The position numbers and the translations under genes were made by a program. This document shows, in pieces, positions 5,895 to 63,987 of a stretch of 64,000 bases of DNA. This stretch comes from a virus, in IMG/VR virus record IMGVR_UViG_3300032245_001127. One strand, written 5' to 3'. The notes beneath the pieces are model-generated. The model made no database searches, had not been told where the DNA came from, and saw only the letters and a list, made by a program, of their open reading frames with translations. How positions within the stretch are numbered: the stretch's first letter is position 1; each line of letters opens with the position of its first letter.

Positions 5895-5911
5895 AATATA
5901 ATATTTAGGTA

Positions 5912-41072: not shown

Positions 41073-41552
41073 TTAGAGTAATTTCGCAATTACTGTAACA
41101 AGAGCAACTAATTCTCTTATAGATTCTTCGTCTTTTGGTAATGATATATTTGCTTTTGAATGAGCATTTTTTACTGATTTATCGAATCTTCCTGCAACTG
41201 CGATTGCGTATCTTACCTGTGCTTCTAAATCAGAAGACTCATTATCTTGAGAACAAAGTAAATCTGTTCGAGTAATAAAATCTTCAGTTGCTTCTGCTGA
41301 CATTCGAATTATATCATCTCTTAAATCGGCTTGTCTATCGTCAAACATTGTTTGAGATATATCATGTAATAGATCTGGAGATTTAAGAGTAAATGCAGTT
41401 GCTAATGCAATAGTATTTACAAATGTTCGATCTTTGTTCGATAATCCTAATAATCTTGATTTGTATTCGTCGACAAATGATGGGATGCCCTCTGAATAAT
41501 TTATCCACCAAGGAGCAATCGGTTCCATTTGTTCATTTATTATTTCATTCAT
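41073..41552 (-). CDS. Hypothetical all-alpha protein
   Basis: Overlaps aminotransferase stop; no clear catalytic motif. Confidence 0.6.
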   Translation of the reverse strand: MNEIINEQMEPIAPWWINYSEGIPSFVDEYKSRLLGLSNKDRTFVNTIALATAFTLKSPDLLHDISQTMFDDRQADLRDDIIRMSAEATEDFITRTDLLCSQDNESSDLEAQVRYAIAVAGRFDKSVKNAHSKANISLPKDEESIRELVALVTVIAKLL

Positions 41553-42778
41553 AAGTTTTCTATCTCCTCTTTTCTAGTTGTTAAACATAAAGTCGTTCTC
41601 GCTTTTAATTCGTCAAAATATTCGTCATCTACAATCAGTGGCAAAATTAGTTTAATCATTTTATGAGAAGTAGTTGCTGCCATTCCAGCATTACTTAAAT
41701 GATATAAACCAATAGGGGTTGCAATGGGATTAGTTTGAATTGATCTCCAGCAACCTTTACCAATTATAGATGTCGCAAGTTTTTCATTCACAAGGAATGT
41801 TTCTAATTCTTTTATCTTTTTACCAATGTAATTTTGATGATCTATTGTTAAATAACCTTTAGAATTTAATATCTCAATTACTCTATTTGCAAGTTCTACT
41901 CCGTACATGTTTGGTTGCCAAGTGTGCCCCCAATCCCAATTCTTTTTACGAACTCCTTTTGTAACTTTTTCATTCGCTAATGCTGCACTTAATGGAACCA
42001 TTCCATTTGTTAATGCTTTTCCGATTGTTACAATATCTGGAGTTACTCCATAATATGTATGTGTAAAAAGTGTTCCTACTTTACCACCATATCCTGCTAC
42101 ATCATCAACAATCATTAATATATTAAATTCATCACAAATTTGTCGAACAGTTTTCCAAAATTCTTGACTATATGGTGCAATCGTTTCATTCCAAGGCATA
42201 CTTTCCATTATACATCCACCAATAGTTGGATTTGCTTGTAAAGTGGTAATAAAAGAATCGGTAAGCATTGTTTCGTGTTCTATACGTTCAGCGTCCGTGT
42301 ACCATTCTTTACCACGAATCATCTTAACACGACTTAGTTCTTTGCTCGGAAGCATATCATTTTTAAATTGTCGATTTAAATATGTAGTTCCATGATAGCA
42401 AGGATAAAAACTTACTAAATGTGTTTTTGGTCTTCCAATATTTACCCAATAAGTATCATGCATATAAATGGCAGCTTCGTTTGCATCTGAGCCTGAAACT
42501 GCATAAGCGATACTTTCCATATTTGCAGTAGAACAAAGCGTCTCATTTAGTTTTTCAACAGCTTCACTTGTTTCACCACTATTCCCACGAATAAAATCTA
42601 TTTTATTTTTTGAAAATATATCTCTTAAATCTTCAGCTTGATAACCTAAACCGAAAGCAGCATTACCAGATTGTATTTCTAAATGTGGAGGTGCATTTAA
42701 ATAATGTACCCAATATTTTTCTGTAAAGGCAATTTCTTTAATATGTTCTTGAGTGCTATTTGGTTTTAATTCAATCAT
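41549..42778 (-). CDS. Class III PLP-dependent aminotransferase
   Basis: SGSDANEAA, YHGTT, DDVAG.GGKVG, PDIVTIGKALTNG, WGHTW; start moved to MIELK at 42778. Confidence 0.9.
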   Translation of the reverse strand: MIELKPNSTQEHIKEIAFTEKYWVHYLNAPPHLEIQSGNAAFGLGYQAEDLRDIFSKNKIDFIRGNSGETSEAVEKLNETLCSTANMESIAYAVSGSDANEAAIYMHDTYWVNIGRPKTHLVSFYPCYHGTTYLNRQFKNDMLPSKELSRVKMIRGKEWYTDAERIEHETMLTDSFITTLQANPTIGGCIMESMPWNETIAPYSQEFWKTVRQICDEFNILMIVDDVAGYGGKVGTLFTHTYYGVTPDIVTIGKALTNGMVPLSAALANEKVTKGVRKKNWDWGHTWQPNMYGVELANRVIEILNSKGYLTIDHQNYIGKKIKELETFLVNEKLATSIIGKGCWRSIQTNPIATPIGLYHLSNAGMAATTSHKMIKLILPLIVDDEYFDELKARTTLCLTTRKEEIENL

Positions 42779-42866
42779 AAGTAACAAAAAATGGATACGA
42801 CAGCTAATAACCAACCAATAATAATTAGCACTAACCAAATATTAGGTTTATGTTGTTTTATATTCA

Positions 42867-44443: not shown

Positions 44444-44444
44444 A

Positions 44445-44705
44445 TTATAAATCCGTTGTTTTATTTAATACTGATCCTGGAGTTTTCTTATGTATTTTGT
44501 TTAACACTTCTTTAAAATCTTTCTTTCTTCCTTTTGCTGCACCAGTATTTCCAGTTGCATTCCATGGTGCTATGGTTCCAGGAAATTTAGTAAAAATTTG
44601 AATAATGTTTTTATTCTTTTTTAAATATTTTTCTAATTCTTCATACTTCATTTCTTGTTCAAACGTTTCACCAGTTTTTGTATTTTCAAAACTATATATT
44701 GGCAT
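44445..44705 (-). CDS. FmdB-like conserved phage protein
   Basis: MPIYSF.N.KTGE.FE..FKEVL.KI...PGS. Confidence 0.7.
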   Translation of the reverse strand: MPIYSFENTKTGETFEQEMKYEELEKYLKKNKNIIQIFTKFPGTIAPWNATGNTGAAKGRKKDFKEVLNKIHKKTPGSVLNKTTDL

Positions 44706-45758: not shown

Positions 45759-46373
45759 TTATATGTTAAAATATTTACCCTCTATTTCCATCACTGCAGT
45801 TACTCTCCAATGTCCTGGATTAGTTGCATTATTTACTAATTGATGTTGAATATCATGTCCATTAAATGCTCTAAATTCTCCAGTTTTCCAAACTCTTTTA
45901 ACTCCATCAAATATTAATGCTTGATTTTCTGGATCTGGTATATCAATTCCAAAACTTACTGTATATCCACTAATTGATGGATCTCCAACACTTTGACGTA
46001 TCCAATCCCAAACATAACCATCATGATGGACTGGAAGCATTTTTCCTGGACGAATAAAATTAATACACATATCAATCATTCCTTCAATTTGAAATGCTGC
46101 TTTCATACTTCGATTCCAACCCAAACTCCATTTTTCTTGTACTTTTCGACCATCTATTACAGGAAGAGCCTTAAAACCCCCTTTATTCGCTTCAGGCATT
46201 GCGTATCTTTCGTCTGCGTTCACAGTATCAGTTTCTATACTAAAATTGTTTCTCCATGCTGCATAATCGTTTAAAAGGGCTTGCATGAGCTTTTGCAATG
46301 CACCATAATCTTTATATTGTATTGGATCACCTAACCACATAATTCCTCCTTTATAAAGCCCACTCTGTTTCAT
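45759..46373 (-). CDS. Asp/Asn beta-hydroxylase-like Fe(II)/2OG dioxygenase
   Basis: PGKMLPVHHD..W.TGEFRAFNG..QH.LVN..WRVT. Confidence 0.8.
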   Translation of the reverse strand: MKQSGLYKGGIMWLGDPIQYKDYGALQKLMQALLNDYAAWRNNFSIETDTVNADERYAMPEANKGGFKALPVIDGRKVQEKWSLGWNRSMKAAFQIEGMIDMCINFIRPGKMLPVHHDGYVWDWIRQSVGDPSISGYTVSFGIDIPDPENQALIFDGVKRVWKTGEFRAFNGHDIQHQLVNNATNPGHWRVTAVMEIEGKYFNI

Positions 46374-46926
46374 TTGTATCTACAATTGCAGACACTCTCC
46401 AATTTCCAGTTTTATTCCAAACTTTATGCATATAATTTCTTCCATCAAAAGCAACTATTTCGTTATTTGCATATGCTCTTGGAGCTGAATCGTTTTCAAA
46501 TTCTATTCCAAGTATTTTCGGATCATTGCTTGGCATATCAATACCGATTGCAATAGTCCAGCCTTTTACAGCATGACCAACTGATTCTTCAATTCTTTGC
46601 CAACTACCAAAATCTTTATGTAATGGTAATCCACCAAATGGTGTAATGAAATTTACTATTGACTGAAATACTCCAGGAATTTCTTTTAAAACTGCAGTAG
46701 AACGATGCCAGTCATTAGGTACAGCTTTTGTTCCTTGTATAAGTGGAATAGCCCACCAAGAATCTGCATGTTCATGTTCTGCGTTTGGATATTCGTAACG
46801 AAAAACATTAATTCCTTTTTCTTTAATATTATGATTCCTTGAAAATGAAAAATAATCTGCTTGTAAAGCAACTGATAACGATTTTAACATTTCATAATGT
46901 TTGAATTTTTTTGGATCTATCCACAT
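46351..46926 (-). CDS. Asp/Asn beta-hydroxylase-like dioxygenase
   Basis: LPLHKD..EIVAFDG..MHKVWNKTGNWRV. Confidence 0.8.
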   Translation of the reverse strand: MWIDPKKFKHYEMLKSLSVALQADYFSFSRNHNIKEKGINVFRYEYPNAEHEHADSWWAIPLIQGTKAVPNDWHRSTAVLKEIPGVFQSIVNFITPFGGLPLHKDFGSWQRIEESVGHAVKGWTIAIGIDMPSNDPKILGIEFENDSAPRAYANNEIVAFDGRNYMHKVWNKTGNWRVSAIVDTNETEWAL

Positions 46927-46927
46927 A

Positions 46928-47647
46928 TTATTCTCCTGTATAAGTAGCCCATCTATTTTGTAAATAATAGAGGTCTGAATTTTTTAAATTATATTGCGTA
47001 TATTCTAAATCTATAATTGCTGTAACACGCCAGTCGTTGCTATGATTATATACATCATGATAATGTGTTTTTCCTTCGAAAGAAACCCACTCACCAGTAT
47101 TCCAACCTTTTTTTTCTGGTACTCCAGTGTATTTATTTTTAAAAACAAATCCCATATTAGTAGCATTAGTTGCTAATCCTAATACATTACTGAATCCATT
47201 TAGTGGTCTTCCTATATCTTTTTCAATTCTTTTCCATCCACCTGTATCATCATGAGATGGTAATTCTGATTTTGGTTTTACAAAATTAACAATAAATTGT
47301 ACTATTCCTGGAAGTTTTAAAGCCAATTCTGCTGACTCTTTCCAGTCTTCAAAATTTTTCATTTTCTTATTTCCGCAATCAGTAAATACTGCATCGCAAA
47401 ACCAATATTCGTTTGGATTATGTCGATCTTCAATAGATTCTGGTCTATGGTATAGATCGTCGCCACCTTTTACATGAGCATAATCTGGATAGACGTCATG
47501 GTGTTCAAATTTTTGAACTTGAATACGTTTTGCATATGCTTCATTTGTACCATATTTAAGTTTCCATTTTTCAAAGTCTGATTGTATTACTTTGCCTAAA
47601 AACATTAAATCGTCATAATTTTTATATAATTTAGTATCAATCCACAT
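46928..47647 (-). CDS. Asp/Asn beta-hydroxylase-like dioxygenase
   Basis: LPSHDD..GEWVSFEG..YHDVYNHSNDWRV. Confidence 0.8.
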   Translation of the reverse strand: MWIDTKLYKNYDDLMFLGKVIQSDFEKWKLKYGTNEAYAKRIQVQKFEHHDVYPDYAHVKGGDDLYHRPESIEDRHNPNEYWFCDAVFTDCGNKKMKNFEDWKESAELALKLPGIVQFIVNFVKPKSELPSHDDTGGWKRIEKDIGRPLNGFSNVLGLATNATNMGFVFKNKYTGVPEKKGWNTGEWVSFEGKTHYHDVYNHSNDWRVTAIIDLEYTQYNLKNSDLYYLQNRWATYTGE

Positions 47648-47651
47648 AATT

Positions 47652-48695
47652 CTATTCTCCCTTTGAATCCTCTATCATTTCTTCTGCATGTAATTCTATA
47701 TAATTCATTATATTATGATATTCTTGATATTCTATAAAATATTGTTTTAATAAATTAATCGTTTTAGATCCTAAATTGTTCCAATAAAAAAGCAATTCAT
47801 CGTCTGGTATTGAATCAACATAATGTTTTATTCCACCATTATCTGTTAAATATTTAACATTCGAAAGAATATGTTTATAGATAATGCTTTCATTTTCTGA
47901 ATCTACAACTATATTTATCTCTCTCATAGTTGGTTCTTTTAAAGTTACATAATGATCGTTTTCTAATTTAATTGTCGGATGTGGTTTTGCAGGTAATATA
48001 ATTGTTTCTTTATTACCATTAATAATAATTTCTTTTAATCTCTCATTAATAAAATGTTTTTTATCAATATCTATAACTGCTGTAATTCTCCACTCATTCG
48101 TGTCATTCCACATACTATGACCAGCTTCTTTACCATCAAAACAAACTATTTCTCCTGCTAGTGGATATTTTTGAATTCCTTCGACATCCATTCCTACTGT
48201 TTTTTCATTTTTGTTTTTCATTCCAGAAAATAATGTAACAACCGCACTATAACCATCTACTTTTCTTTTTAATTGTTCTTCAATACGATCCCAATTACTT
48301 GTATCTTTATGTGGAGTTATTTTACCATGTGGTTTGATAAAATTTATAAGTATTTGATACACTCCATTTAATTTACTCAATGCTTCCCAAGATTTAGGAA
48401 AAACTATTTTATCCCAAACTCTATTATAATAACATGGAATAGTTTTCCAATCATCTGCATGTTTAAATTCTAAATTATTTGAAGGAACTTCAGTCAATTC
48501 GCCAACATATTGTTTTGGTACAATCGTTAAACGGCTAATTTTAGTTTTTGCTTTATCTCCAGTACCATAAGCACTTAATGCATCTGTTTCTATATTATGT
48601 TTTTGTACCCAAGCTAATATATCTTGTTGTAAGTATGGAACTATTTTTTCTAAATCAGAATAATGATTATAATTTTTTATATTAATCCAAGACAT
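47652..48695 (-). CDS. Asp/Asn beta-hydroxylase-like dioxygenase fused to a gp26-like C-terminal domain
   Basis: ITPHKD..GEIVCFDG..HSMWNDTNEWRI; extra ~120 aa aligning by eye with gp26. Confidence 0.75.
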   Translation of the reverse strand: MSWINIKNYNHYSDLEKIVPYLQQDILAWVQKHNIETDALSAYGTGDKAKTKISRLTIVPKQYVGELTEVPSNNLEFKHADDWKTIPCYYNRVWDKIVFPKSWEALSKLNGVYQILINFIKPHGKITPHKDTSNWDRIEEQLKRKVDGYSAVVTLFSGMKNKNEKTVGMDVEGIQKYPLAGEIVCFDGKEAGHSMWNDTNEWRITAVIDIDKKHFINERLKEIIINGNKETIILPAKPHPTIKLENDHYVTLKEPTMREINIVVDSENESIIYKHILSNVKYLTDNGGIKHYVDSIPDDELLFYWNNLGSKTINLLKQYFIEYQEYHNIMNYIELHAEEMIEDSKGE

Positions 48696-49770
48696 TTCTT
48701 CGTTCCCCTTTTCTTTTTATATCAAGTGTTAAACAATGAACACCACCATCCCAAAAACCACCTTGTCTTTGATTTGCCACATGTAATTTAATTCCGTGCG
48801 ATTTAAAAAATTCTTCTAATTTTGGTTGATGGTTGCTTACAACTATGTTCGATTCATCTACCACTACGACATTACTATCAAAAGCAACTTCTTGTGCGAA
48901 TCCACGCCACTCAGATATCCATTCTTTAATCCATTCAATACTATATTTTCCTTCTGAAGCTGTCATTCGATGATCGTATTGTATCATATCTATATTTGTA
49001 ATTAAATGACCAAAAGAATGTACATTTATATTTTTATTTTTTAATATAGCTTCTGGTACATAATTTATATCTGTACAAAAACAAGTAGTGTCATTAGTCA
49101 TAAAAAAGAACTGATCGATATGTCCCCAACCACGATGTGGCTTATTTACGTTATCAATAAATTTTGTAGAAGGAATATTTCTTTTCATCCAATCTAATCC
49201 TAATGCTGTTCCAGGACCAGCTGAATTTACAATTATTGAATCGCCAACTTTATACATTGTTGCAGTATGCCATAATATTCTATTCACCAAATCTCTTCCA
49301 TATCTGTCGCCACCATGTGTAAACCATTGAGTGTCAGGTGGAAAATCTTTAAGTAATGGAACTGGTGTGCTTATCCAGTTATAAGAATTTTTTGTGTACT
49401 TTTCTAAAAATATATTATAAAATGCTAATGACTCTAACCATCGATCAGCCATTGAAGTATATGCTGAATAGATTGTATTTCCATAAACAATATAGGAATC
49501 TCTTGGAACAATTGGTGCGATAGGATTTTTAATTTTAAATTTAGGAAGTTTTAAATTACTTTCAAACGGAAGTATTTCTGGACGATAAACCTTTACATTT
49601 AAAGATTCAAATACTTTTTGCATATTATCTAAATCTTCTTTAGTTTCAAGAATAATGGGTTCTAACACACGCATTACTTCTGCACTTACAAATGATTTAT
49701 AATAATCAGGTGTAGGAATATTTCCTACTATAATTTCCTCTAAAGGATCATAATCTGTCCAAACACTCAT
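48682..49770 (-). CDS. Amidinotransferase (glycine/inosamine type)
   Basis: YDPLEEIIVG, PRD, GHID, GGVHCLTLD catalytic His/Cys. Confidence 0.9.
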   Translation of the reverse strand: MSVWTDYDPLEEIIVGNIPTPDYYKSFVSAEVMRVLEPIILETKEDLDNMQKVFESLNVKVYRPEILPFESNLKLPKFKIKNPIAPIVPRDSYIVYGNTIYSAYTSMADRWLESLAFYNIFLEKYTKNSYNWISTPVPLLKDFPPDTQWFTHGGDRYGRDLVNRILWHTATMYKVGDSIIVNSAGPGTALGLDWMKRNIPSTKFIDNVNKPHRGWGHIDQFFFMTNDTTCFCTDINYVPEAILKNKNINVHSFGHLITNIDMIQYDHRMTASEGKYSIEWIKEWISEWRGFAQEVAFDSNVVVVDESNIVVSNHQPKLEEFFKSHGIKLHVANQRQGGFWDGGVHCLTLDIKRKGERRNVLD

Positions 49771-49776
49771 AATAAT

Positions 49777-50256
49777 TTATTTAGGTTGATAATCTTTACC
49801 CCATACATCTTTAAGATAATTCTCATCCCAAAAACTATAATAATTTGTTTTAATTAGAGAATCTCTTGCTTCATTTAATTCTTTTTTAGGTTGGCATAAC
49901 ATAAAATTATAATAACCATTATTTGTTTGTACGCCATTTATAAATGTTTTACGATCTTTATGGTCAGCTAAAAACACTAAATCTGGAAATTTGTTCGCAT
50001 AGAAAGAACACCAAGAATCCATATATTCAGGTGTAATGTTTAAATTTGTAACTGTATATACTTTAATTCTTCGAATATTCTCAACAGATGGAGCTATAAA
50101 ATTTTCGTCCATATGTAAATATTCTGGAGTTGGTACACCAATACCTTTACTAAAAGGACAAATAGAATGACCATCGAGTGCTTGACGAGGAATTTTAATC
50201 CTCGCCAGCCACTCTTGTAATGCTTCTTTTGGTGTTATATTATGCTTGTCGTACAA
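49777..50256 (-). CDS. Hypothetical protein (DUF1415-like CPF motif)
   Basis: W...I..P...L.G.SICPF; DH; L..AR..L..T.YY..W. Confidence 0.55.
   Translation of the reverse strand: MYDKHNITPKEALQEWLARIKIPRQALDGHSICPFSKGIGVPTPEYLHMDENFIAPSVENIRRIKVYTVTNLNITPEYMDSWCSFYANKFPDLVFLADHKDRKTFINGVQTNNGYYNFMLCQPKKELNEARDSLIKTNYYSFWDENYLKDVWGKDYQPK
49778..49784 (-). promoter_or_regulatory. Late promoter motif CTAAATA
   Basis: 7 nt before amidinotransferase ATG; same geometry as before gp25 and gp2. Confidence 0.5.
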
Positions 50257-50731
50257 GATATTGATCCTTCATTGAAATAGGATCAAAATATTCTATAATC
50301 ATACTTTTCACCATTTCAATATCAAAAGTTTTACATGAAAACAAATCAAAATACATATCACCATTTATATCTAAAAAGTGTATAGTTAATGAACTTGTTG
50401 TCAATGGTTGTATTACTGTCCATCCAGCAATTTCTGGCTTTTCAGCAAAGTGTGTAATCCATGGGGTTCCCCATGCATTCATGTTTATTCTTTTTAATAA
50501 ATCCACTACGAAAGTTTCTAGAATTTTAGGTTCATTAAAATTCTTTTTACATCCTTTCGCATCTAATATTAAATGATATCCCCATGATTGAATAGCAGTA
50601 TTTGCATATTTTTCATGGAATACTCTGCCCACATTATTATTTCCACTGTTCTCAAGTGAAGAAGGAACAGATTTTATTTTTGAAGTTTCGCGTTGGGGAA
50701 ACTCCTGTAGATTTAACTTTGCTTGAGTCAT
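50240..50731 (-). CDS. speD: S-adenosylmethionine decarboxylase-like pyruvoyl proenzyme
   Basis: WGYHLILDAKGC, GWTVIQPLTTSSLTIHF, YFDLFSCK.FD. Confidence 0.82.
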   Translation of the reverse strand: MTQAKLNLQEFPQRETSKIKSVPSSLENSGNNNVGRVFHEKYANTAIQSWGYHLILDAKGCKKNFNEPKILETFVVDLLKRINMNAWGTPWITHFAEKPEIAGWTVIQPLTTSSLTIHFLDINGDMYFDLFSCKTFDIEMVKSMIIEYFDPISMKDQYLVRQA

Positions 50732-50734
50732 CTT

Positions 50735-51910
50735 TTACTTATTTACCTCTATTACTTGCGACATACATTTTCCTCCGAAACCGAAAGAATTATTTAATGT
50801 ACGCAAGACTTTTTTGTTTGTTTTTAAATTCTCACGAACCAAAATTCCTTTTGTATCGCAAGATGCCTGTTTTAAATTTTGTATATGTGGAATAATTCCC
50901 TCTTTCATTGAAATGATTGAGTAAATGCATTCTAATATACCAGCTGCAGCAAGAGTGTGTCCTATTTTGGATTTTGGAGCCCAAATAGGTTTTTCACCTA
51001 CGAAACTGACTACTGTTTCATACTCGATTGGATCACCAATTGGTGTAGAAGTTGCGTGCGCACACACAAAATCTATATCATTCACATGACCCATTGCTTT
51101 AGACATAGAAATACGAGCACCTCGTCCATCATTTGCAGGACTCGTCATATCAAGTGCATCACTCGCCATACCACAAGGATATAAAGTTGCATGCACTGTA
51201 CTGCCATATTTCTTGACCATTTTTTCACTTTGTAATATAAGTACACCACATCCATCTCCCATCAGAAATCCTGAACGAGAATCATCGAAAGGCATACTTG
51301 TATTCGCAACTGCACCTAAGGTGTTAAAATATTTAATCGCCATAGGAAAACAACCTGCATCTGCACCTCCTACAATGACATATTCATATTCATCGCAGAG
51401 ACGCATTCCATAATCAATAGTTACAAGTCCAGTTGAACAACTCGCGAAAGTTGCAGCACTTAGACCCATAAATTTGTAATGAGAAGTAATATGAGAACAT
51501 CCCATGTCTGGAATACGATTAGCACTCTTACGTGGGTTTACTCTTTTATTACTTTTCGTCGGCAAATACAACTCATCTAAAAATTCTGTATCATTTGACA
51601 CAGTTGATAGAAGAGTTGCCACATCGTAGTGATGTGGTAATTTTGACATAATCAGTGCATCATTCACAGCATGCAACATCATTTTCTGTGCATTTGTTAA
51701 TGAACGTAACATCTTATTGTCAAATTCTTTTGGTATAATACAAGTATTAGGATCAAATATTGCTCCTCTATATACTTTACTATTGTCCGCAATCAGTTCT
51801 GGTATATCTTTAGAATAATCATTATTATCTAACATTCGATTAAAACAATCTTTAGGATTATTCCCAAGACTATCAATCATACCATAACCTACAACATAAA
51901 TTTTATTCAT
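50735..51910 (-). CDS. fabF: Beta-ketoacyl-ACP synthase (FabF/FabB-like)
   Basis: ASCSTG, AHATST, KSKIGHTLAAAG, NNSFGFGG: intact Cys-His-His triad. Confidence 0.93.
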   Translation of the reverse strand: MNKIYVVGYGMIDSLGNNPKDCFNRMLDNNDYSKDIPELIADNSKVYRGAIFDPNTCIIPKEFDNKMLRSLTNAQKMMLHAVNDALIMSKLPHHYDVATLLSTVSNDTEFLDELYLPTKSNKRVNPRKSANRIPDMGCSHITSHYKFMGLSAATFASCSTGLVTIDYGMRLCDEYEYVIVGGADAGCFPMAIKYFNTLGAVANTSMPFDDSRSGFLMGDGCGVLILQSEKMVKKYGSTVHATLYPCGMASDALDMTSPANDGRGARISMSKAMGHVNDIDFVCAHATSTPIGDPIEYETVVSFVGEKPIWAPKSKIGHTLAAAGILECIYSIISMKEGIIPHIQNLKQASCDTKGILVRENLKTNKKVLRTLNNSFGFGGKCMSQVIEVNK

Positions 51911-52553
51911 CGTTTACTTCATCATTAATTATAAAATTCTTCATACTATTTAGTGCATCGTCCCACTCAAGAGGTTTCGGATAAGTCAACCCATCAACGT
52001 TTATAGACTCGTTTGAGTTTAATTTGTAAAACCAAGCACAAATTACATGACGATAATTAGAGCCATTTTCTATGTTGTGTGGCTGTCCAGTATTTGCTAA
52101 TATGGGTTCATTCGGCAATATAGTATGTCTTGCTATTTCTTTTTTTAAATTAAAATCAGGAAATTTCATCGTCGGACCACTGTCATTAGTTGTAATAGTA
52201 TCATACCATGACGGATCTTTTACGTCATACCAAACCATTGAATGATCGTTAGTTGGACAATAACACCATATAATTTTAACAATATTGTCTATCCAATCGT
52301 CATTATCAGTATGTACATACATACGATAATTCGGTTTACTTGAAAATCTTTCTATTCTTAATACACCCAATCCTATATTTTTTGCCCAATCAATTAAACT
52401 TGGATTAATTAAATGTCTTTCTCCATAATGATCTGCGTATTTTGCATCAATCGATTGATCTTTTTCTTTTGGAAAAACATAATCGTTTGTAAATGGATGT
52501 TCAAATGGTAATTTTAATTTACGAAATGAACGATTTAAGTTTTGTAATTGCAT
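51903..52553 (-). CDS. Cupin-fold Fe(II) dioxygenase-like, family B
   Basis: VHTD..PILANTGQPHNIEN...R. Confidence 0.7.
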   Translation of the reverse strand: MQLQNLNRSFRKLKLPFEHPFTNDYVFPKEKDQSIDAKYADHYGERHLINPSLIDWAKNIGLGVLRIERFSSKPNYRMYVHTDNDDWIDNIVKIIWCYCPTNDHSMVWYDVKDPSWYDTITTNDSGPTMKFPDFNLKKEIARHTILPNEPILANTGQPHNIENGSNYRHVICAWFYKLNSNESINVDGLTYPKPLEWDDALNSMKNFIINDEVNDE

Positions 52554-53097
52554 AATCCCATTCTATGTTAATATTTGTATAATTAAACCAAGTTAAACTT
52601 ACTGCCCATCTTGTACTGCTAGTAGCATTAGTCATTGAATGTGGTACTCCAATGTTCACTAATGATGGAAATTTTATTTCAGATCTATGTAATAAATTAC
52701 ATTCATCATCTTTCCAGTTGAGTGCGTATGGTGTTGTTGAAATAGCATATGCTTCTTTTTCTGTTCCTGGAGCAACAATTGAATGTTTTTTAGGATTTTT
52801 TGGTTGCCACCATTCCATATAAGAACCTGATTCTTCACAAAATTGCCAATTAATCGCAACTGAATCGCTCAATTGTTCGCCATCAACATGGATAGGTAAT
52901 CGAAAAGCAGGAGGTGAAATAAAAACATCTGCATTCTTTAATATAAATCCTTTTAATTCAAACCAATCTATTAATTCTTTATCAATTAAATTTTTTGGTA
53001 TTGGAAAATGTCCTTTTTTTGGAAGTAGTTTTTTCCAATCTTCTACGTTAAATAATTTTTTAAATGGCAAATTTAAATGAACGCAATATTTGTTCAT
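52519..53097 (-). CDS. Cupin-fold Fe(II) dioxygenase-like, family B
   Basis: IHVDG..PSLVNIGVPHSMTN....RWAVS. Confidence 0.7.
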   Translation of the reverse strand: MNKYCVHLNLPFKKLFNVEDWKKLLPKKGHFPIPKNLIDKELIDWFELKGFILKNADVFISPPAFRLPIHVDGEQLSDSVAINWQFCEESGSYMEWWQPKNPKKHSIVAPGTEKEAYAISTTPYALNWKDDECNLLHRSEIKFPSLVNIGVPHSMTNATSSTRWAVSLTWFNYTNINIEWDYAITKLKSFIS

Positions 53098-53777
53098 ATT
53101 ATATAATCCTTAAATAATTCTATTGCTTCAGGCATTGTAACAATATCTTGTAATATCTTTGCATTTACAGCTTTATCTCTTTCGATTGCGATTGTTTCAA
53201 GTGGCATACCTTTTAATATTGCTTCATTTGTAGTAAATACATCTTTAATTAAAATTTTATCAAATACACAAGATAAACATTTTCTTGGACTAAATGTAGT
53301 TTTTACATTATGTGGTTGCCCAACTTGTACTATTGCTACATCTATATCTGCAGAATCAATTAAATCAACTTCTTCAGGATACCAATATAAATCTTTTGTA
53401 TTAATTGGTCTTGCATCTTGATTAGCATATAGCACTCCTTCTCTTTTTGCCTTTGCTTCTTTATGTGGAGAAAACCAATTCATTAAACTATTTCCTCTAG
53501 GATTATATGCAAAATTTAATTTAAACTCATCATGTAATTCATTTCCATCTATATGAATAGGCATAGAATGATTTGCAGGATTTAAAAATAATTCTATGTC
53601 AGTAATGCTTAATCCTATTGTTTCTAACCATAACAAATATTCTGGATTATGATATTTTATTTCAACCCAAATTTTAGTTTGTTTTGTAAACGAATATGAC
53701 TGCATCCAATCCATTCCTTCTTTTGTTAATGGTTCTGGAATATTTTCTTTATTTAAATGTTTAAAATTAAATGACAT
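53094..53777 (-). CDS. Cupin-fold Fe(II) dioxygenase-like, family B
   Basis: IHIDG..KLNF..VQVGQPHNV....RKCLS. Confidence 0.7.
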   Translation of the reverse strand: MSFNFKHLNKENIPEPLTKEGMDWMQSYSFTKQTKIWVEIKYHNPEYLLWLETIGLSITDIELFLNPANHSMPIHIDGNELHDEFKLNFAYNPRGNSLMNWFSPHKEAKAKREGVLYANQDARPINTKDLYWYPEEVDLIDSADIDVAIVQVGQPHNVKTTFSPRKCLSCVFDKILIKDVFTTNEAILKGMPLETIAIERDKAVNAKILQDIVTMPEAIELFKDYII

Positions 53778-54369
53778 ATTTTTTAAAAACTTCTAATCCT
53801 TCTTCCATATTCATTCCACCAAGATCTATAAATTCTTGTTCTCGTTTTAATCCTTCTTTCCAAATACTAATATTAAATAATTCAAGTGGTTCAGATCCAT
53901 TAATAACTTGATGTGGTACTCCTACACAAACTAAAGATGGACTTCCTGTAGTTTGATTTGCTTTTTCTTCAACTTCATTTTCTTTAAATTGAAGACTGTA
54001 TGGACTATTCGCATTATTTGATACATTATCGCTAACTCCTGAAGTTAATGGTTCAAAAAATCTGAATGAATGTTTTCCACCAAATGCCCAATTAAATTTT
54101 GCTTTGTGGCAATATCGAGAGCCATCAATATGAATACCCATAGCAAAATTCGGTTGAAAATAAAAGTATTCACAACCAACTATAAGATATCCGTATGATT
54201 TAAAAAAAGAATGTGCTACTGAACTTGCAGCTGATGGTGGTAGATCTAATCCATAATTTTGAACTAATGGATCTTTCTCTATTTCTTTTAATGCTATTTC
54301 TCTATATGATTCTAAACCGAATGGTGTTGGTGATTTAAAGGGTAATGACAAATCGACGATGTATTTCAT
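53767..54369 (-). CDS. Cupin-fold Fe(II) dioxygenase-like, family B
   Basis: IHIDG..KFNW..PSLVCVGVPHQVIN; distal Arg absent. Confidence 0.7.
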   Translation of the reverse strand: MKYIVDLSLPFKSPTPFGLESYREIALKEIEKDPLVQNYGLDLPPSAASSVAHSFFKSYGYLIVGCEYFYFQPNFAMGIHIDGSRYCHKAKFNWAFGGKHSFRFFEPLTSGVSDNVSNNANSPYSLQFKENEVEEKANQTTGSPSLVCVGVPHQVINGSEPLELFNISIWKEGLKREQEFIDLGGMNMEEGLEVFKKYVI

Positions 54370-54372
54370 AAT

Positions 54373-55179
54373 TTAATTAATTTGTAAATGCTGTAAACGA
54401 GGATATACTTCATCCCATCTACCAATAGAATCTTTTCCAATTAATTTAAGTGAATAACTTAAACAAACTCTCGGACCAGATGTAGTATTTACAACATTAT
54501 GATATATACCAATATTTGTTAATGATGGTTGTGTTAAATCGAATGATAAATTGTGTTGATGAACCATACGAGGACTGTTAGGACCATCTGATAATGCTAC
54601 TTCTTTTACGATATAGTATTTTACATCATGATCTCCTGGAACATTATCTTTTGTTGATTCGTCTATGCTAAAATAATTTTGTTGGCTTAATCCATCTTGT
54701 TTAAAACAATAAACGAAATTAAGTTTAGTTGATTGCTGCCAAGCATCTTTATGAGCACCCAACCACATATTTGCTGGTGTAATAAAAATATCCCAATGAG
54801 CAATTTCTAATCCAACATCTTTTAATACACGTATAAATCTTGGATGTATAAAGTCTTCATTTACATCATTATCGATAATATCGATGCAACTATACCAAAA
54901 TGGCAATTTATCATGCCATTTAATGATTGGTTCTTTAGAAGTATATGATGCTTCTTTTAAATTTCTTTCCCATTTAAGTGGATGGATTAAATATTCGATT
55001 GCTTGAATTTCTTTTGGTATAACTTTCTCATCAAACCAATATGGTGGTATTGGAAGTGAATCAAACCATTCCTGAGATGTATATGGTCTTGTAAAACCTG
55101 CTGGCATTTGTAACCTTACTGCATAAGGTGGACAACTATTGCCTATGTGTGTTTCTGGATAAATTGTAAATATACTCAT
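54373..55179 (-). CDS. Cupin-fold Fe(II) dioxygenase-like, family B
   Basis: AHKD..KLNF..PSLTNIGIYHNVVN....RVCLS. Confidence 0.7.
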   Translation of the reverse strand: MSIFTIYPETHIGNSCPPYAVRLQMPAGFTRPYTSQEWFDSLPIPPYWFDEKVIPKEIQAIEYLIHPLKWERNLKEASYTSKEPIIKWHDKLPFWYSCIDIIDNDVNEDFIHPRFIRVLKDVGLEIAHWDIFITPANMWLGAHKDAWQQSTKLNFVYCFKQDGLSQQNYFSIDESTKDNVPGDHDVKYYIVKEVALSDGPNSPRMVHQHNLSFDLTQPSLTNIGIYHNVVNTTSGPRVCLSYSLKLIGKDSIGRWDEVYPRLQHLQIN

Positions 55180-55184
55180 GCTAC

Positions 55185-55191
55185 TATTTAG
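55185..55191 (-). promoter_or_regulatory. Late promoter motif CTAAATA
   Basis: AACCTAAATAGTAGCATG, near-identical to AACCTAAATAGTGCTATG before gp2. Confidence 0.6.
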
Positions 55192-55192
55192 G

Positions 55193-55981
55193 TTAATTTA
55201 AAACTAAATCGGATAAAATAGGATAAATTGCTTTCCAATGTGTGTAGTTATCACCATAGTATTCAGCTTTAAAAAGACCAATTTTATAAGATAAACAAAT
55301 TCTTACGCCACTACTTTTATTTATTACATTATGCATTCTTCCTACATTAGTTAATGATGGTTGTGTCCAATCATTAGATAAATTGTGTTCGTAAATAAGT
55401 TTATCATTTTCATCATAATAGTTTTGTTGACTTAATCCACTTTTATCAAAACAATATACAAAATTTAATTTAGTACATTCATATGTAGTATCTTGGTGCG
55501 TTCTTAACCAACCATTGGGACCAGAAATAAAAATATCCCAACCAAGCAATTTAAGTTTTCTAGAATTTAAAAAAGAAGTAAAACGAGGAGACACTAACTC
55601 ATCACACACGTTATTATCTACAATATCGATACTATCTTCCCAGTCTTCAGGTGCTCCAATATATGGTATTTTCATTCTATTTTCAGAATAACTTATTTTA
55701 GAATAACTAGAAAATTTTTCAATATCATCTTTAGATTGAGTATATCTTACACCAGATGTATAACCTGATTCGTTGATAGTTGTTTTATTCCAGACTATTT
55801 CTTTTGAATAATTATGAATTGTAGGATGAAGTATTAAAGAATATGGTTTATATTCTTTTCTTGGATTAATTTCCCATTTTTTTGGATATGGAAGTAACGA
55901 AAACCAAGATTCCAAAGAATATGGTTTTAAAAATGGTTTTGGTAATTGCAGACGAACTGCATATGGTTCATAACTAATCAT
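55193..55981 (-). CDS. Cupin-fold Fe(II) dioxygenase-like, family B
   Basis: THQD..KLNF..PSLTNVGRMHNVIN....RICLS. Confidence 0.7.
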   Translation of the reverse strand: MISYEPYAVRLQLPKPFLKPYSLESWFSLLPYPKKWEINPRKEYKPYSLILHPTIHNYSKEIVWNKTTINESGYTSGVRYTQSKDDIEKFSSYSKISYSENRMKIPYIGAPEDWEDSIDIVDNNVCDELVSPRFTSFLNSRKLKLLGWDIFISGPNGWLRTHQDTTYECTKLNFVYCFDKSGLSQQNYYDENDKLIYEHNLSNDWTQPSLTNVGRMHNVINKSSGVRICLSYKIGLFKAEYYGDNYTHWKAIYPILSDLVLN

Positions 55982-55989
55982 ATTAATTT

Positions 55990-56066
55990 TGGCTCACTCG
56001 GCAAGACTCGAACTTGCAACCTCCAGATTCGTAGTCTGGCATTCTATCCAATTGAACTACGAGTGA
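55990..56066 (-). tRNA. tRNA-Arg(ACG)
   Basis: Acceptor TCACTCG/CGAGTGA, anticodon arm CCAGA-CTACGAA-TCTGG, T arm GCAAG-TTCGAGT-CTTGC, encoded CCA. Confidence 0.96.
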
Positions 56067-56076
56067 ATAAAATAGA

Positions 56077-56232
56077 TTATGGTGTTGGTATGACTATACT
56101 TTTTAATCCATCTACAATTTTGTCCATCGGTGTAGTAACTTCCTTTGGAGTATTTGTACAAGAAATTAAAAAAAATGCTATAATTGTTATTGTAGCAAAA
56201 AATATAGCAGTTTTATATAAAGTTTTATCCAT
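56077..56232 (-). CDS. Small putative lipoprotein (not in ORF track)
   Basis: MDKTLYKTAIFFATITIIAFFLIS-C lipobox, 51 aa. Confidence 0.55.
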   Translation of the reverse strand: MDKTLYKTAIFFATITIIAFFLISCTNTPKEVTTPMDKIVDGLKSIVIPTP

Positions 56233-57079
56233 TTAATTCACTCGTTAATGTTCGATTAATTTGAACTAGATTTAATTTTTCTGCAAGTTCTAGTACTCTT
56301 GCAGTCGGATCGCTTATTCCATCTCCAAAACTATAATCCATTGGTTTATAGTGATGATACTCGTGTTGTCCTTCTCCGAAATTGATAAATGCTCCACCGA
56401 TTGGATCTAATGAAACTATATCTTTTGGCTTTTCCCCAGAATGACTTACTGCGTTTGTTATTCCCATTCCATGAATACCAAATACAACAGCAATTGCTGC
56501 ACCAATAATTACAGGTAATCCACCTAATATTCCTAAATGAACTTTAGCTAATTCTGAAAATACAAAAAGAGATACCCAAAAAAGAATTAAAGTTTGTACT
56601 GCTTTAAAATGATATCGTAATGCAATTGTATTTCTATGCAATCCTGCTGTCATTTTTGGTGGAACATCTTCTTTTCGCCAATCCCATAAATGAAAATAAG
56701 ATCGCCAAAATCCTATTCTCCACGGACTATGTGGATCTTTATCAGTATCTAAGTAACTATGATGCATTCTATGCAGTGCTGCCCAACCAAGTGGTGTTCC
56801 AATACCAGAATATATTGCAAATATATTAGATAAATGTTCTAATGTTTTACTTTTAAATTTTACTGAACCATGTGCGAGTGCACGATGCGCATATCCTGAT
56901 ACTGCAAATGCGCCAATAAACCAAAAACTGATCGCAACAAAAATTGTAGTAATTGTTCCATATTTAAAAGCAAGCAATGCCAAATAATGTACAAAAATAT
57001 AATAAGTCAATCTTAAATAAAGATTGTTTCGAGTAGATATATCTTTAAAAAAAGATTTAAACTTTGTTAGATTTAACAT
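56225..57079 (-). CDS. Delta-9-type membrane fatty acid desaturase
   Basis: His boxes HRALAH, HRMHH, HEYHH; DTDKDPHSP. Confidence 0.92.
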   Translation of the reverse strand: MLNLTKFKSFFKDISTRNNLYLRLTYYIFVHYLALLAFKYGTITTIFVAISFWFIGAFAVSGYAHRALAHGSVKFKSKTLEHLSNIFAIYSGIGTPLGWAALHRMHHSYLDTDKDPHSPWRIGFWRSYFHLWDWRKEDVPPKMTAGLHRNTIALRYHFKAVQTLILFWVSLFVFSELAKVHLGILGGLPVIIGAAIAVVFGIHGMGITNAVSHSGEKPKDIVSLDPIGGAFINFGEGQHEYHHYKPMDYSFGDGISDPTARVLELAEKLNLVQINRTLTSELNG

Positions 57080-59904: not shown

Positions 59905-60767
59905 TAAAACTCCTCTATTTCTTGTAATAATAAATTACAACGATTATTCATAAGATAAGTGTATATACTCATCTTATCACCCTTTGGTTTGTTATTCAAG
60001 TACACTTCCATTATATTTTTAGTAATATCTTCAGGGATTTTATCAAGATTTACTAACGCTTCATTCCTTTCCCAATTACGTCTTTGCTCATCATTCTCAC
60101 AAGCATTAATACCTTTACTGAAAAAAGGTGTAAGTCTTTTTTTAGTAATTGGTCGCTGACGTGCATCAGGTTGAGTGAATATATCGTCAGGAGATAATAT
60201 ATTAGGAATACCATCTCCAGCATCACCACGCACTATATGTTCTATAATAAAATTATCAAGTTCATCATATCTTAATGTAACTTTTTTCTTTTGTATTGGT
60301 GAAAATTGTTCTACGTTACCATGTTTTTGTAACTGTTTAAAATCTTTATCAGAAGATATTATAATATGTTTTTCTAATGGATAGGATTTAACTAATATCG
60401 CAATCACATCATCAGCTTCTGTGTTATCTAAATGCATCACTTTGTATGGAAAATATTCAACTAAATCTTTTCTTATTTCTGACATTGTATCGAATATTAA
60501 TTTCCAATCTAAACCACTATCTTCTCTCGCTTGTTTACGATGTGCTTTATATAAAGGAAATACTCTTTTTCTCCAATAGTCTTTACCATCTGCACAAACT
60601 ACTAATTCTCCATAGTCAGCATATTTCTTTTTATAAAATTTAAGAGTAGAAATAACAGCATGTCTTATAATATTTTTTACAGAATTAGCATCACCACCTT
60701 TAACTAAATCAGGTTTAAATGATAATATATTTGAAATTGCTACTTGTGAATAATCTATAAGAATCAT
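59904..60767 (-). CDS. rnh: RNase H / 5'-3' exonuclease
   Basis: MILIDYSQ, YWRK..FP.YKA.RK, EADDVI, SSDKDF.QL, GD.GDGIPN; start moved to MILID. Confidence 0.95.
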   Translation of the reverse strand: MILIDYSQVAISNILSFKPDLVKGGDANSVKNIIRHAVISTLKFYKKKYADYGELVVCADGKDYWRKRVFPLYKAHRKQAREDSGLDWKLIFDTMSEIRKDLVEYFPYKVMHLDNTEADDVIAILVKSYPLEKHIIISSDKDFKQLQKHGNVEQFSPIQKKKVTLRYDELDNFIIEHIVRGDAGDGIPNILSPDDIFTQPDARQRPITKKRLTPFFSKGINACENDEQRRNWERNEALVNLDKIPEDITKNIMEVYLNNKPKGDKMSIYTYLMNNRCNLLLQEIEEF

Positions 60768-61603
60768 ACTGGTAACCAAAATCTATCTATTTTACCTTTA
60801 GTCTCTACAAACTTAGATGCTTCTACGATTGTACCATCAGAAAGAGATTGTTTATATCCTAAGTCTGCCATAAATTTACATAAATCATTCGCTTCATAAC
60901 CTGCTCTTCGACACATATTCTCTTGTATTTCAGTTTGAATAACTGGTCTGTATTTTTTTATAGTTTCTAAACCACCTTTAATTACTTGAAACTCTAATCC
61001 TTCTACATCTATTTTAATTCCATCTACATCTTTAAATTCAAAACTATCTAATGTTTTAGTATAAACAAATTGTGGTGCAGTTCTTTTAGAACGACTTGCT
61101 GCCTTTTTAATCCAACCCTTTTTAGTTAATTTCTTTCCATTAAAATCTAATTCTAAATGGTTATGCCCAGAAGATTTATTATGATCGATAATAGTCGCTC
61201 TTCCCTCAACATCACTAAGAGCATAAGGAAATACTTCTATATCTCCAGTTAGTGTAAGATCTGCGTAAATTTTTTTCTTTTTATCGATTGCGTACCATCC
61301 TTTAGGAGAAGAATTCTTTACTTTATTTAATTCTATATTTTTAAGTAACCATTCTCTTAAGTATGAAGTGGGTTCAAAAGTTTTAACTGATTTTGCCCAT
61401 GTAGCATATTCTATTGTATTTGTTCCTAAGTGACCACCTACATCAATAATAGTTCTTGCATTTTTTGTACAAGATCTAAAATATCTCAAATTGTTTACTT
61501 GATAACCAGCAGAAGCAAGTCTTTGTGTATAAAACCCATCACCCTTTTCTACGTGGTATTTTCTTCCAGTCGCAGATGTAATTATAATAGATTCTTTAAC
61601 CAT
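60764..61603 (-). CDS. FkbM-family SAM methyltransferase
   Basis: IIDVGGHLG, FEP, ALSD, IKIDVEGLE..VIKGG. Confidence 0.9.
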   Translation of the reverse strand: MVKESIIITSATGRKYHVEKGDGFYTQRLASAGYQVNNLRYFRSCTKNARTIIDVGGHLGTNTIEYATWAKSVKTFEPTSYLREWLLKNIELNKVKNSSPKGWYAIDKKKKIYADLTLTGDIEVFPYALSDVEGRATIIDHNKSSGHNHLELDFNGKKLTKKGWIKKAASRSKRTAPQFVYTKTLDSFEFKDVDGIKIDVEGLEFQVIKGGLETIKKYRPVIQTEIQENMCRRAGYEANDLCKFMADLGYKQSLSDGTIVEASKFVETKGKIDRFWLPV

Positions 61604-63417: not shown

Positions 63418-63987
63418 TTACTCCTTTGCTTCTAGTTCAACTGTTGGAAAATGAATATAATCTTCATATTCAATTGCATATTTAATCATATCTGCAACGT
63501 TATGTACTGTAAGTTTTTTTCCAGTATATTCGTTCGCTAATGGTGTTTCTACCCAAGATGGTCTAATCATTGTAACTTTAAATGGAGTGTGTAACTTTTG
63601 TATTCTTCTTGTTTCTTTATCTAATAATTTTTTATATTTCCAATAATCATTAAATCCATATTGTACTTCACTTTCTTCATCCCAATAAGAAGTAGCCATA
63701 CTTCCAATTACAATACAAAGTTTTTTTGAAGTTCCATAAAGTTCATGTAATTCTTTTAAACAAGAATGTTGTTCTCCTGTATGTGCGTTTAATACAATAT
63801 GAGTTGCGTCTTTACAGTTTGAAATAAATGATGAATAGGTTGTTTGTTCGTGAAGATTTTGTGAAGATTTAATATCATAACCAATAACTTGCCAATTAGA
63901 TTGTCCAGAATAATAATTATAAATTGTATTTCCGATTGTTCCTAAATGACCAGTAATGACCATTTTATAATTACCAAGTTTTTCCAT
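63418..63987 (-). CDS. Short-chain dehydrogenase/reductase
   Basis: ITGHLGTIG, LNA, IGS, Y...K, IRPSWVETP. Confidence 0.8.
   Translation of the reverse strand: MEKLGNYKMVITGHLGTIGNTIYNYYSGQSNWQVIGYDIKSSQNLHEQTTYSSFISNCKDATHIVLNAHTGEQHSCLKELHELYGTSKKLCIVIGSMATSYWDEESEVQYGFNDYWKYKKLLDKETRRIQKLHTPFKVTMIRPSWVETPLANEYTGKKLTVHNVADMIKYAIEYEDYIHFPTVELEAKE

Follow-up and report, generated by a model that had tools for sequence, protein, structure and literature searches.

The locus described here raises the question whether a tightly packed run of enzyme genes in an aquatic virus encodes a single biosynthetic pathway or was assembled from parts that are inherited separately. It occupies positions 45759-57079 (minus strand) of a 64,000-nucleotide (nt) stretch of DNA, the window, taken from the IMG/VR virus record IMGVR_UViG_3300032245_001127, and comprises 16 protein genes and a tRNA-Arg gene, which are all co-oriented and either overlap or are separated by gaps of at most 13 nt. 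In order of transcription these specify a membrane acyl desaturase (DES), a peptide of 51 amino acids (aa), the tRNA-Arg, six JmjC/cupin-like oxygenase paralogues (C6 to C1), a beta-ketoacyl synthase (KS), a pyruvoyl decarboxylase (SPED), a small protein with an invariant Cys-Pro (CPF), an amidinotransferase-like protein (AMT) and four AspH-like oxygenase paralogues (A4 to A1). The first-pass annotation had described fourteen contiguous and co-oriented genes, many of them overlapping, as parts of one dedicated pathway; the run itself was confirmed at its coordinates on the minus strand, with overlaps at seven of its 13 junctions and gaps of 13 nt or less at the others. The single pathway was borne out in part, as the block is conserved and enzyme-dense and a set of tailoring genes recurs around AMT, but the assignment of all 14-16 genes to KS and AMT chemistry was not. 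On balance we lean towards regarding the block as a mosaic of separately inherited cassettes, in which a plausible lipid-remodelling cassette is distinguishable from a recurrent cassette for guanidine tailoring found almost only in phages. The region is a variant of the plastic, oxygenase-rich regions already known from T4-like phages of aquatic habitats, and the CPF-AMT cassette is its most interesting lead.

Linkage was determined in a set of 109 viral loci fetched with KS and AMT as queries, onto which all island genes were mapped; the 78 AMT loci were grouped into 22 lineages at 60% identity, and neighbours were counted within eight genes of AMT. CPF was found near AMT in eight of the 22 lineages, radical-SAM arrays in nine, the C family in four, class-III aminotransferases and the A family in three each, a short-chain dehydrogenase/reductase (SDR)-like gene in two, and KS or SPED in just one, which is the window's own clade. 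Proximity of SPED to AMT was likewise confined to this clade, apart from locus L042, in which the two genes are ~8 kb from each other. The AMT proteins of the eight CPF-AMT lineages are only 24-44% identical, and the pair occurs in several orientations and contexts. On L113 (JBBAKF010000125.1), a contig of 5.6 kb, the order is C - aminotransferase - AMT - CPF together with a tail-fibre (Mtd_N) gene; on L041 and L042 it is C - AspH - x - SDR-like - CPF - AMT - aminotransferase; and on L060 it is DES..C - x - aminotransferase - 2-oxoglutarate (2OG) oxygenase - AMT - SDR-like, with the desaturase five genes from AMT. Homologues of the SDR-like protein that the window encodes outside the block flank AMT in L041, L042 and L060 (BLASTP 1.6e-8, 4.6e-7 and 5.8e-5, respectively), and the family of AT1, an aminotransferase also encoded outside the block, adjoins AMT in other lineages. 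The earlier view that these are not scattered metabolic genes is upheld by this recurrence of CPF, class-III aminotransferase, JmjC-like or other 2OG oxygenase and SDR-like genes around AMT in divergent lineages.

For KS a different set of neighbours was observed. In a marine clade with KS proteins 53-58% identical to that of the window, the locus reads rnh..FabI..DES - small open reading frame (ORF) - C-like - C-like - small ORF - KS..denV, the FabI of the ~56% clade (L028:4781-5542) matching adh_short_C2 at E 5e-68. SPED, CPF, AMT and A genes were absent from this locus, and AMT and CPF were absent from the 131-kb and 117-kb records of the clade, while on L020 and L025 KS stands alone beside uvsX and gp41. 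The KS side of the block was set apart from the AMT side because DES-C-KS, with or without FabI, occurs without AMT and because KS and AMT are linked in only that one lineage.

The KS protein matched both ketoacyl synthase domains of Pfam (PF00109, N-terminal, E 2e-23; PF02801, C-terminal, E 2.3e-21) and PDB FabF (E 1e-39), and its translation contains the motifs ASCSTG, HATSTP, KSKIGH and FGFGG, which represent the Cys-His-His triad, the Lys and the GFGG loop in what we take, from E. coli FabF, to be the same register. The naming of this protein as FabF with an intact triad is therefore sound with respect to these residues but not with respect to FabF equivalog status, as it fails NCBIfam TIGR03150 (fabF) with 205 bits against an equivalog cut-off of 493.75. 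KS shares both domains and all of these motifs with bacterial FabF and FabB, yet it is only ~25-30% identical to cellular or prophage-borne members, and it belongs to a large phage/metagenome clade (53-60% identity) which has no partner acyl carrier protein (ACP). By its sequence it is a divergent FabF-like ketosynthase and not a captured host fabF. A complete relative of 144.8 kb encodes no PP-binding (carrier) protein and no FabI, and because the clade encodes no carrier protein KS is presumed to use the ACP of the host.

DES was aligned at all three His boxes with SCD1 (PDB 4ymk, E 8.4e-6); it also matched NCBIfam DesA_fam at E 2.7e-9, below the cut-off, its homologue in L028 passes Pfam FA_desaturase (PF00487), and it is 72-74% conserved in relatives. 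Its sequence marks it as a delta-9-type membrane desaturase, the regiospecificity being a prediction. In being a phage membrane desaturase with His boxes it resembles the lipid desaturases of cyanophages and pelagiphages (Roitman et al. 2017, PMC5776448) and the FA_desaturase of Pelagibacter phage Mosig, the latter being flanked by an AspH-domain gene and an aminotransferase gene in the order AspH - desaturase - aminotransferase beside tail fibres; DES, however, is only 27% identical to the Mosig enzyme and is paired with KS. In two records of the marine ~56% clade a PP-binding domain was seen inside an ORF of ~330 aa some 28 kb from KS (G002:C1:43731-43892 and G003:C1:72826-72987).

AMT matched solved amidinotransferases over its full length, namely HsvA (5wpi, 3.3e-19), StrB1 (1bwd, 1.1e-15), AGAT (1jdw, 1.1e-15) and SxtG (6u1r, 4.8e-15), at ~25% identity, and gave no match in Pfam or NCBIfam. 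It shares with these enzymes the C-terminal GGxHC nucleophile motif and the GHxD motif, and in 12 divergent phage sequences C346 (GGVHC) and H217/D219 (GHID) are invariant. It differs from them at the canonical triad Asp, the first Asp of FDAAD, which in the alignment with HsvA is replaced so that AMT reads WHTAT; in all phage sequences compared this position is His (WHTAT or FHAAN), or Glu in one lineage. The amidinotransferase call thus stands as regards full-length similarity, Cys and His but not as regards the canonical Asp, and because that residue is absent AMT may not be a transferase. A tblastn search of cultured phages with AMT reached only the Campylobacter phages CP220 and F379.

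CPF (159 aa, phrog_10325) belongs to a family with ~2,900 clusters in the protein collection, nearly all viral and including S-PM2 p077 ('T4-like GC 824'); among the 120 listed, all are annotated as 'hypothetical'. Sixteen divergent members share one invariant Cys-Pro (C33-P34) as well as a Trp, a Gln, a Tyr, a second Trp and a second Tyr, and in the predicted structure (pLDDT 89.7) a four-strand sheet lies between helices, and a short helix begins at the Cys. A profile search of PDB sequences returned nothing meaningful. Exhaustive structure alignment (VIA, 48,161 chains) ranked AglA (9ub3) first, 1.4 Z ahead of the next chain, with a root-mean-square deviation of 4.3 over 140 of the 159 residues and a Z of 5.5, which is within noise as Z values of 7-8 are common for models without a real match. 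AglA is the prototype YqcI/YcgG enzyme, a four-strand sandwich in which Cys44 ligates haem and guanidine nitrogens are hydroxylated (PMC12866846); C33 was equated with Cys44 from alignment offsets only. In addition, four of the 16 CPF members gave sub-threshold matches (best E 0.0012) to DUF6875, which has been renamed cytochrome P422, a thiolate-haem sandwich family (2025 preprint, bioRxiv 10.64898/2025.12.11.692455). In its predicted fold CPF would resemble both families as a small four-strand alpha/beta sandwich with a conserved N-terminal Cys at a helix start, but at 159 aa it is shorter than their ~240. Taking together the weak fold match, the weak DUF6875 matches and the genomic tie to a guanidino-group enzyme, we see the chances of CPF being a haem-thiolate oxygenase as about even, and the family is thereby singled out as a candidate haem enzyme; were this true, CPF would be the first phage-borne representative of the non-P450 thiolate-haem enzymes, a group recognised only recently.

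SPED, annotated at first as an S-adenosylmethionine decarboxylase (AdoMetDC)-like enzyme, was confirmed as such by a match to Pfam AdoMet_dc (PF02675, E 8.7e-13, 49 bits against a cut-off of 25) and by its processing Ser, His (+5) and Cys (+20), which are in register with S63/H68/C83 of T. maritima AdoMetDC, residues essential in that enzyme (PMC10407285). It also matched phrog_3125 (E 4e-19) and, below the cut-off of 75.65, NCBIfam TIGR03330 (26.6 bits). Its sequence identifies it as a class-1b AdoMetDC/SpeD-type pyruvoyl enzyme, its closest cultured relative being the SpeD of a Sinorhizobium phage (35% identity). Characterised phage SpeD homologues (PMC9992855, PMC10407285) have the same class-1b fold and Ser/His/Cys residues, and the ornithine decarboxylases (ODCs) among them share with SPED a freshwater myophage origin; SPED departs from these proteins by a 45-aa N-terminal extension and by a T-S-S cleavage site in place of the canonical E-S-H. 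According to Li et al. 2023 (PMC9992855), freshwater myophage SpeD homologues are pyruvoyl ODCs and pelagiphage ones are arginine decarboxylases, and the bona fide AdoMetDC of a Sinorhizobium phage falls in their ODC clade. As its relatives thus include ornithine decarboxylases, arginine decarboxylases and true AdoMetDCs, the substrate of SPED was left among AdoMet, ornithine and arginine.

All-against-all BLASTP resolved the oxygenases into two separate paralogue families and also paired the aminotransferases AT1 and AT2 (35% identical). C1-C6 (51903-55981) are linked by a chain of matches with E values from 7e-53 to 1e-3, and A1-A4 (45759-48695) matched each other at E 1e-14 to 1e-28. H-x-D...H is invariant in both families and an invariant Arg is present in the A family; in the C family H70, D72 and H153 are invariant in 21 sequences, and the second His is followed by an Arg in every one of the six paralogues except C4, in which it is not evident. 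The C family had no sequence-level match in Pfam, NCBIfam or PHROG, and since profile searches of both families against PDB sequences gave only chance-level matches, fold prediction was employed for the C family. The AlphaFold model of C2 (pLDDT 91.2) returned MINA53 (4bu2, E 1.5e-5) as the top Foldseek match, followed by NO66, YcfD and FIH (E 1e-5 to 1e-3); 40 PDB matches had E values of 1e-3 or lower, including cysteine-dioxygenase cupins, which do not use 2OG. Judged by this model, the C family consists of JmjC/cupin-fold oxygenases with an HxD...H metal triad and a predicted use of 2OG. The six cupin HxD..H paralogues of the first-pass annotation are hence well founded in the BLASTP chain, the invariant residues and a confident model that matches JmjC hydroxylases. 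As for the four AspH-like hydroxylases, paralogy and the invariant His, Asp, His and Arg are secure, but the Pfam threshold is passed by A4 only (PF05118, Asp_Arg_Hydrox, 26.3 bits against a gathering cut-off of 22.6), A1-A3 scoring 16-22 bits. An A-family relative in L041 scored 40.5 bits with PF05118, and the nearest named Atlas clusters of A2 were all viral AspH-domain clusters (score 0.89), which is a lead only. A4 carries a C-terminal extension of ~130 aa (residues ~215-347) without counterpart in A1-A3.

Tandem oxygenase paralogues among auxiliary genes between core modules are also a feature of the 2OG-Fe(II) arrays of T4-like cyanophages and pelagimyophages, but here two families, six JmjC-like and four AspH-like, flank KS, SPED, CPF and AMT. 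In marine relatives, radical-SAM arrays take the place of the oxygenases of the freshwater phages, and at L071-L083, L093 and other AMT loci of marine and jumbo T4-like phages AMT was seen within radical-SAM arrays that can reach six or more paralogues. The exchange of one type of array for the other may reflect an anaerobic/aerobic or iron-related swap of tailoring chemistry.

The block can be described as three cassettes. The gene identities, folds, paralogy and linkage patterns were observed as given above; all of the substrates in this scheme, haem as the cofactor and the sequence of the reactions are what we infer. The lipid cassette would comprise DES, the putative small lipoprotein, JmjC-like oxygenases and KS, with KS presumably elongating acyl chains on host ACP and DES remodelling membrane acyl chains during infection. 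A guanidine/amine-tailoring cassette would consist of SPED, CPF and AMT, joined in other phages by class-III aminotransferase, SDR-like and JmjC-like or other 2OG oxygenase genes. By analogy with AglA and with the dehydrogenase, aminotransferase and StrB1 steps of streptidine biosynthesis, a carbon might be hydroxylated, oxidised and transaminated and then receive an amidino group from arginine, the resulting guanidine possibly being N-oxygenated; SPED might either clear the ornithine that amidino transfer from arginine leaves behind or provide a diamine as the acceptor. The four AspH-like oxygenases would form the third cassette. That C, aminotransferase, SDR-like, AMT and CPF genes together constitute an undescribed viral pathway which installs, and perhaps N-hydroxylates, a guanidine on a metabolite, lipid or protein during infection, AMT acting through its unusual Cys-His-His/Glu site and CPF as a miniature thiolate-haem N-oxygenase, is possible, if rather doubtful.

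Several observations weigh against a mosaic made up of such cassettes. To the missing triad Asp of AMT and the noise-level alignment of CPF with AglA are added a Foldseek search with the CPF model that gave no match and the cultured cyanophages, in which CPF lies beside gp25-gp6 without an adjacent AMT. In ~15 contigs with KS 86-88% identical to that of the window, and in L027 (78%), the whole block occupies the rnh-denV interval with its gene order intact, the C genes numbering 3-5 and the A genes 4-6, so that functional unity is conceivable within this close clade; the co-occurrence expected by the first-pass annotation was in this way found for the whole block among close relatives and L027 but not for KS and AMT across the lineages. 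As the flanks are equally syntenic, the conservation among close relatives attests to inheritance rather than to functional unity. Since the distant records are 43-73% complete, the absence of AMT from them is not proof. Finally, the boundaries of the cassettes are not clean, with a desaturase near AMT in L060 and C-family oxygenases accompanying both cassettes, which makes the assignment of the C family to either one uncertain.

The alternative that KS, DES, SPED, AMT, the aminotransferases, the SDR-like protein and all ten oxygenases jointly produce a hydroxylated guanidino- or polyamine-acyl compound for virions or the host envelope appears to us very improbable. In favour of such a compound are the dense packing and common orientation of the genes, the synteny of the whole block in ~16 related contigs, the L060 lineage, which joins desaturase, C, aminotransferase, 2OG oxygenase, AMT and SDR-like genes in a different context, and the presence in the AspH family of lipid hydroxylases such as LpxO. 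Yet the single lineage in which KS is linked to AMT, the DES-C-KS(+FabI) loci that have neither AMT nor CPF, and the occurrence of KS alone elsewhere argue otherwise, as does the separation of AT1, AT2, the SDR-like gene and the FkbM-type methyltransferase gene from the block by the core genes rnh and denV and by small ORFs; moreover, carrier protein, adenylation and ligase genes are absent, and nothing is present that would join an acyl chain to an amine. A protein-modification toolkit, whose oxygenases would hydroxylate phage structural proteins or host and phage ribosomal proteins while AMT acts on protein or peptide amines, is likewise unlikely, even though the C family is nearest in fold to hydroxylases of ribosomal proteins and ankyrins (MINA53, NO66, YcfD and FIH), AspH enzymes form a family of protein hydroxylases, a bS21 is encoded by the phage itself, and the cassette or CPF is found in other phages beside tail-fibre (L113) or baseplate genes (L093-L105, S-PM2). 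Purified virions of cyanophage S-SCSM2R contained a glycine amidinotransferase and a 2OG oxygenase (PMC12801897), but the authors of that study regard the virion enzymes as possibly carried or left over from high expression. The block of the window lies in the replication/auxiliary metabolic gene region and not by structural genes, similarity of fold (template-modelling score ~0.5) does not fix a substrate, and class-III aminotransferases, SPED and KS are small-molecule enzymes.

At the other extreme, the block could be an accumulation of unrelated auxiliary genes in a hypervariable region, no two of which share a pathway. This, too, we hold to be improbable: plastic regions rich in 2OG oxygenase and radical-SAM genes are known from T4-like marine phages (PMC7029224), in nine of the 22 lineages the flanks of AMT are radical-SAM arrays and in others they hold no recognisable gene, and CPF has no AMT adjacent to it in the cultured cyanophages, but chance accumulation would not readily account for CPF-AMT adjacency in eight lineages of such low AMT identity and varied arrangement, nor for the combination C - aminotransferase - AMT(-CPF) in at least four. 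A mosaic of separately inherited cassettes is the account that we favour over these, and it reduces the puzzle of oxygenase-rich islands in marine and freshwater myophages to a few direct enzyme assays.

The phage itself fits, by its sequence, a freshwater T4-like pelagimyophage of the SAR11-infecting kind, resembling the PMP-D group. The window encodes the T4-like core gene homologues gp5, gp6, gp8, gp48-like and gp32, the last ~50% identical to gp32 of Pelagibacter phage HTVC008M and of Synechococcus myophages, and a bS21 homologue (40635-40931, minus strand; PDB bS21 E 2.6e-9) with a basic N-terminal extension of ~35 aa; its GC content is ~31%, and pond and freshwater metagenome runs from several studies contain near-identical DNA, no RNA run being listed among the public ones that do. 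Freshwater pelagimyophages of group PMP-D ('fonsimyophages') have Ca. Fonsibacter as predicted host (Zaragoza-Solas et al. 2020, PMC7029224), and among pelagimyophages speH, fabF, a stearoyl-CoA desaturase and a 2OGFeDO gene were unique to this group, AspH, S21 and peptide deformylase being core genes. The phage of the window was matched to PMP-D by gene list only, the shared features being T4-like character, ~31% GC, fabF, a stearoyl-CoA-type desaturase, speH, AspH and S21. Part of the gene content has accordingly been published already (PMC7029224), as a list of genes without description of an island, six JmjC-like paralogues or linkage patterns; that paper gives no account of the island as a unit, of AMT, of CPF or of the C family. 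A megablast comparison of the block with GenBank phages gave no match, and an exact search with the tRNA-Arg in 185,579 species genomes likewise gave none, so that no host is called from the tRNA. In aquatic environments, SAR11 and LD12 bacteria together with their T4-like phages rank with the most abundant biological entities, and through the enzymes that they express these phages alter the lipids, polyamines and nitrogen-rich metabolites of their hosts at the scale of ecosystems. Two database labels touch on the source of such DNA: the L113 contig was binned as a Polynucleobacter metagenome-assembled genome despite its Mtd_N tail-fibre gene, apparently phage DNA filed as bacterial, and the proteins P0001/P0121, 97-99% identical to CPF and KS of the window, are filed at NCBI under 'bacterium' (EBU71_00220 / 00210) with the nr label Candidatus Elulimicrobium.

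Table 1. Coordinates in the window of the genes of the block and of related genes outside it, with the basis of each assignment.
Feature	Position	Strand	Basis
DES, membrane acyl desaturase, predicted delta-9 (SCD1/DesC-like)	56225..57079	-	PDB 4ymk; three His boxes
51-aa peptide, signal sequence and lipobox-like LISC	56077..56232	-	Motif by eye; 71-94% in relatives
tRNA-Arg (ACG)	55990..56066	-	ARAGORN
C6, JmjC/cupin-like oxygenase paralogue, predicted 2OG-Fe(II)	55193..55981	-	BLASTP E 7e-53 to C5; invariant HxD..H
C5, JmjC/cupin-like oxygenase paralogue	54373..55179	-	BLASTP paralogy, HxD..H
C4, JmjC/cupin-like oxygenase paralogue	53767..54369	-	HxD..H kept; Arg after second His not evident
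C3, JmjC/cupin-like oxygenase paralogue	53094..53777	-	BLASTP paralogy, HxD..H
C2, JmjC/cupin-like oxygenase paralogue, the modelled one	52519..53097	-	AlphaFold and Foldseek
C1, JmjC/cupin-like oxygenase paralogue	51903..52553	-	BLASTP paralogy, HxD..H
KS, divergent FabF/FabB-type beta-ketoacyl synthase	50735..51910	-	Pfam, PDB FabF, motifs
SPED, class-1b AdoMetDC-type pyruvoyl decarboxylase	50240..50731	-	Pfam AdoMet_dc; phrog_3125
CPF, small alpha/beta sandwich, invariant Cys33-Pro34; candidate thiolate-haem oxygenase	49777..50256	-	phrog_10325; model
AMT, pentein-fold amidinotransferase-like	48682..49770	-	PDB HsvA, StrB1, AGAT, SxtG; motifs
A4, AspH-like 2OG oxygenase with C-terminal extension of ~130 aa	47652..48695	-	Pfam Asp_Arg_Hydrox; alignment
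A3, AspH-like oxygenase paralogue	46928..47647	-	BLASTP, alignment
A2, AspH-like oxygenase paralogue	46351..46926	-	BLASTP, alignment
A1, AspH-like oxygenase paralogue	45759..46373	-	BLASTP, alignment
AT1, class-III (omega) aminotransferase, outside block	41549..42838	-	NCBIfam argD/bioA-type
AT2, class-III aminotransferase paralogue, outside block	62092..63312	-	NCBIfam; 35% identical to AT1
SDR-like Rossmann protein (putative)	63418..63987	-	GxxGxxG / YxxxK reading only
FkbM-type methyltransferase	60764..61603	-	Pfam Methyltransf_21 E 1.1e-17

With respect to the remaining genes of the first-pass annotation (Table 1), the tRNA and the desaturase at the head of the block hold, while the 51-aa peptide had no family match and its designation as a lipoprotein is a reading by eye of the lipobox. 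Among the neighbours, the two class-III aminotransferases and the FkbM methyltransferase were corroborated by NCBIfam and Pfam, respectively, but the SDR was not, as it gave no match in Pfam, NCBIfam or PDB sequences.

The block lies in the plastic rnh-denV region, and no convincing internal terminators were found in it; a sigma-70 promoter scan gave fewer sites than in shuffled sequence. The heptamer CTAAATA is present in 18 copies on both strands of the window (e.g. at 5902, 6152, 28103, 28558, 35988, 44724, 49778, 51947 and 55185), nine of the 18 being located no more than 45 nt upstream of a gene start, a share that is 4.8% for 40 control motifs with permuted letters. Six copies end 4-9 nt before an ATG and, if the heptamer were a late promoter, would give almost leaderless mRNAs. 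Copies are found upstream of C5, KS and AMT, but as the island copies are not conserved in relatives with an 87%-identical KS, neither operon boundaries nor timing were drawn from them. On L028, of the marine ~56% KS clade, a cytochrome c-like protein of 145 aa (L028:13038-13475) is encoded beside MazG-like (PRA-PH) and HD-domain genes. The genes immediately downstream of the island, at 42867-45264 on the minus strand, specify a GH19 chitinase-like lysozyme, a PD-(D/E)XK nuclease and a pyrimidine-dimer glycosylase of the denV type, and their order is conserved in relatives.

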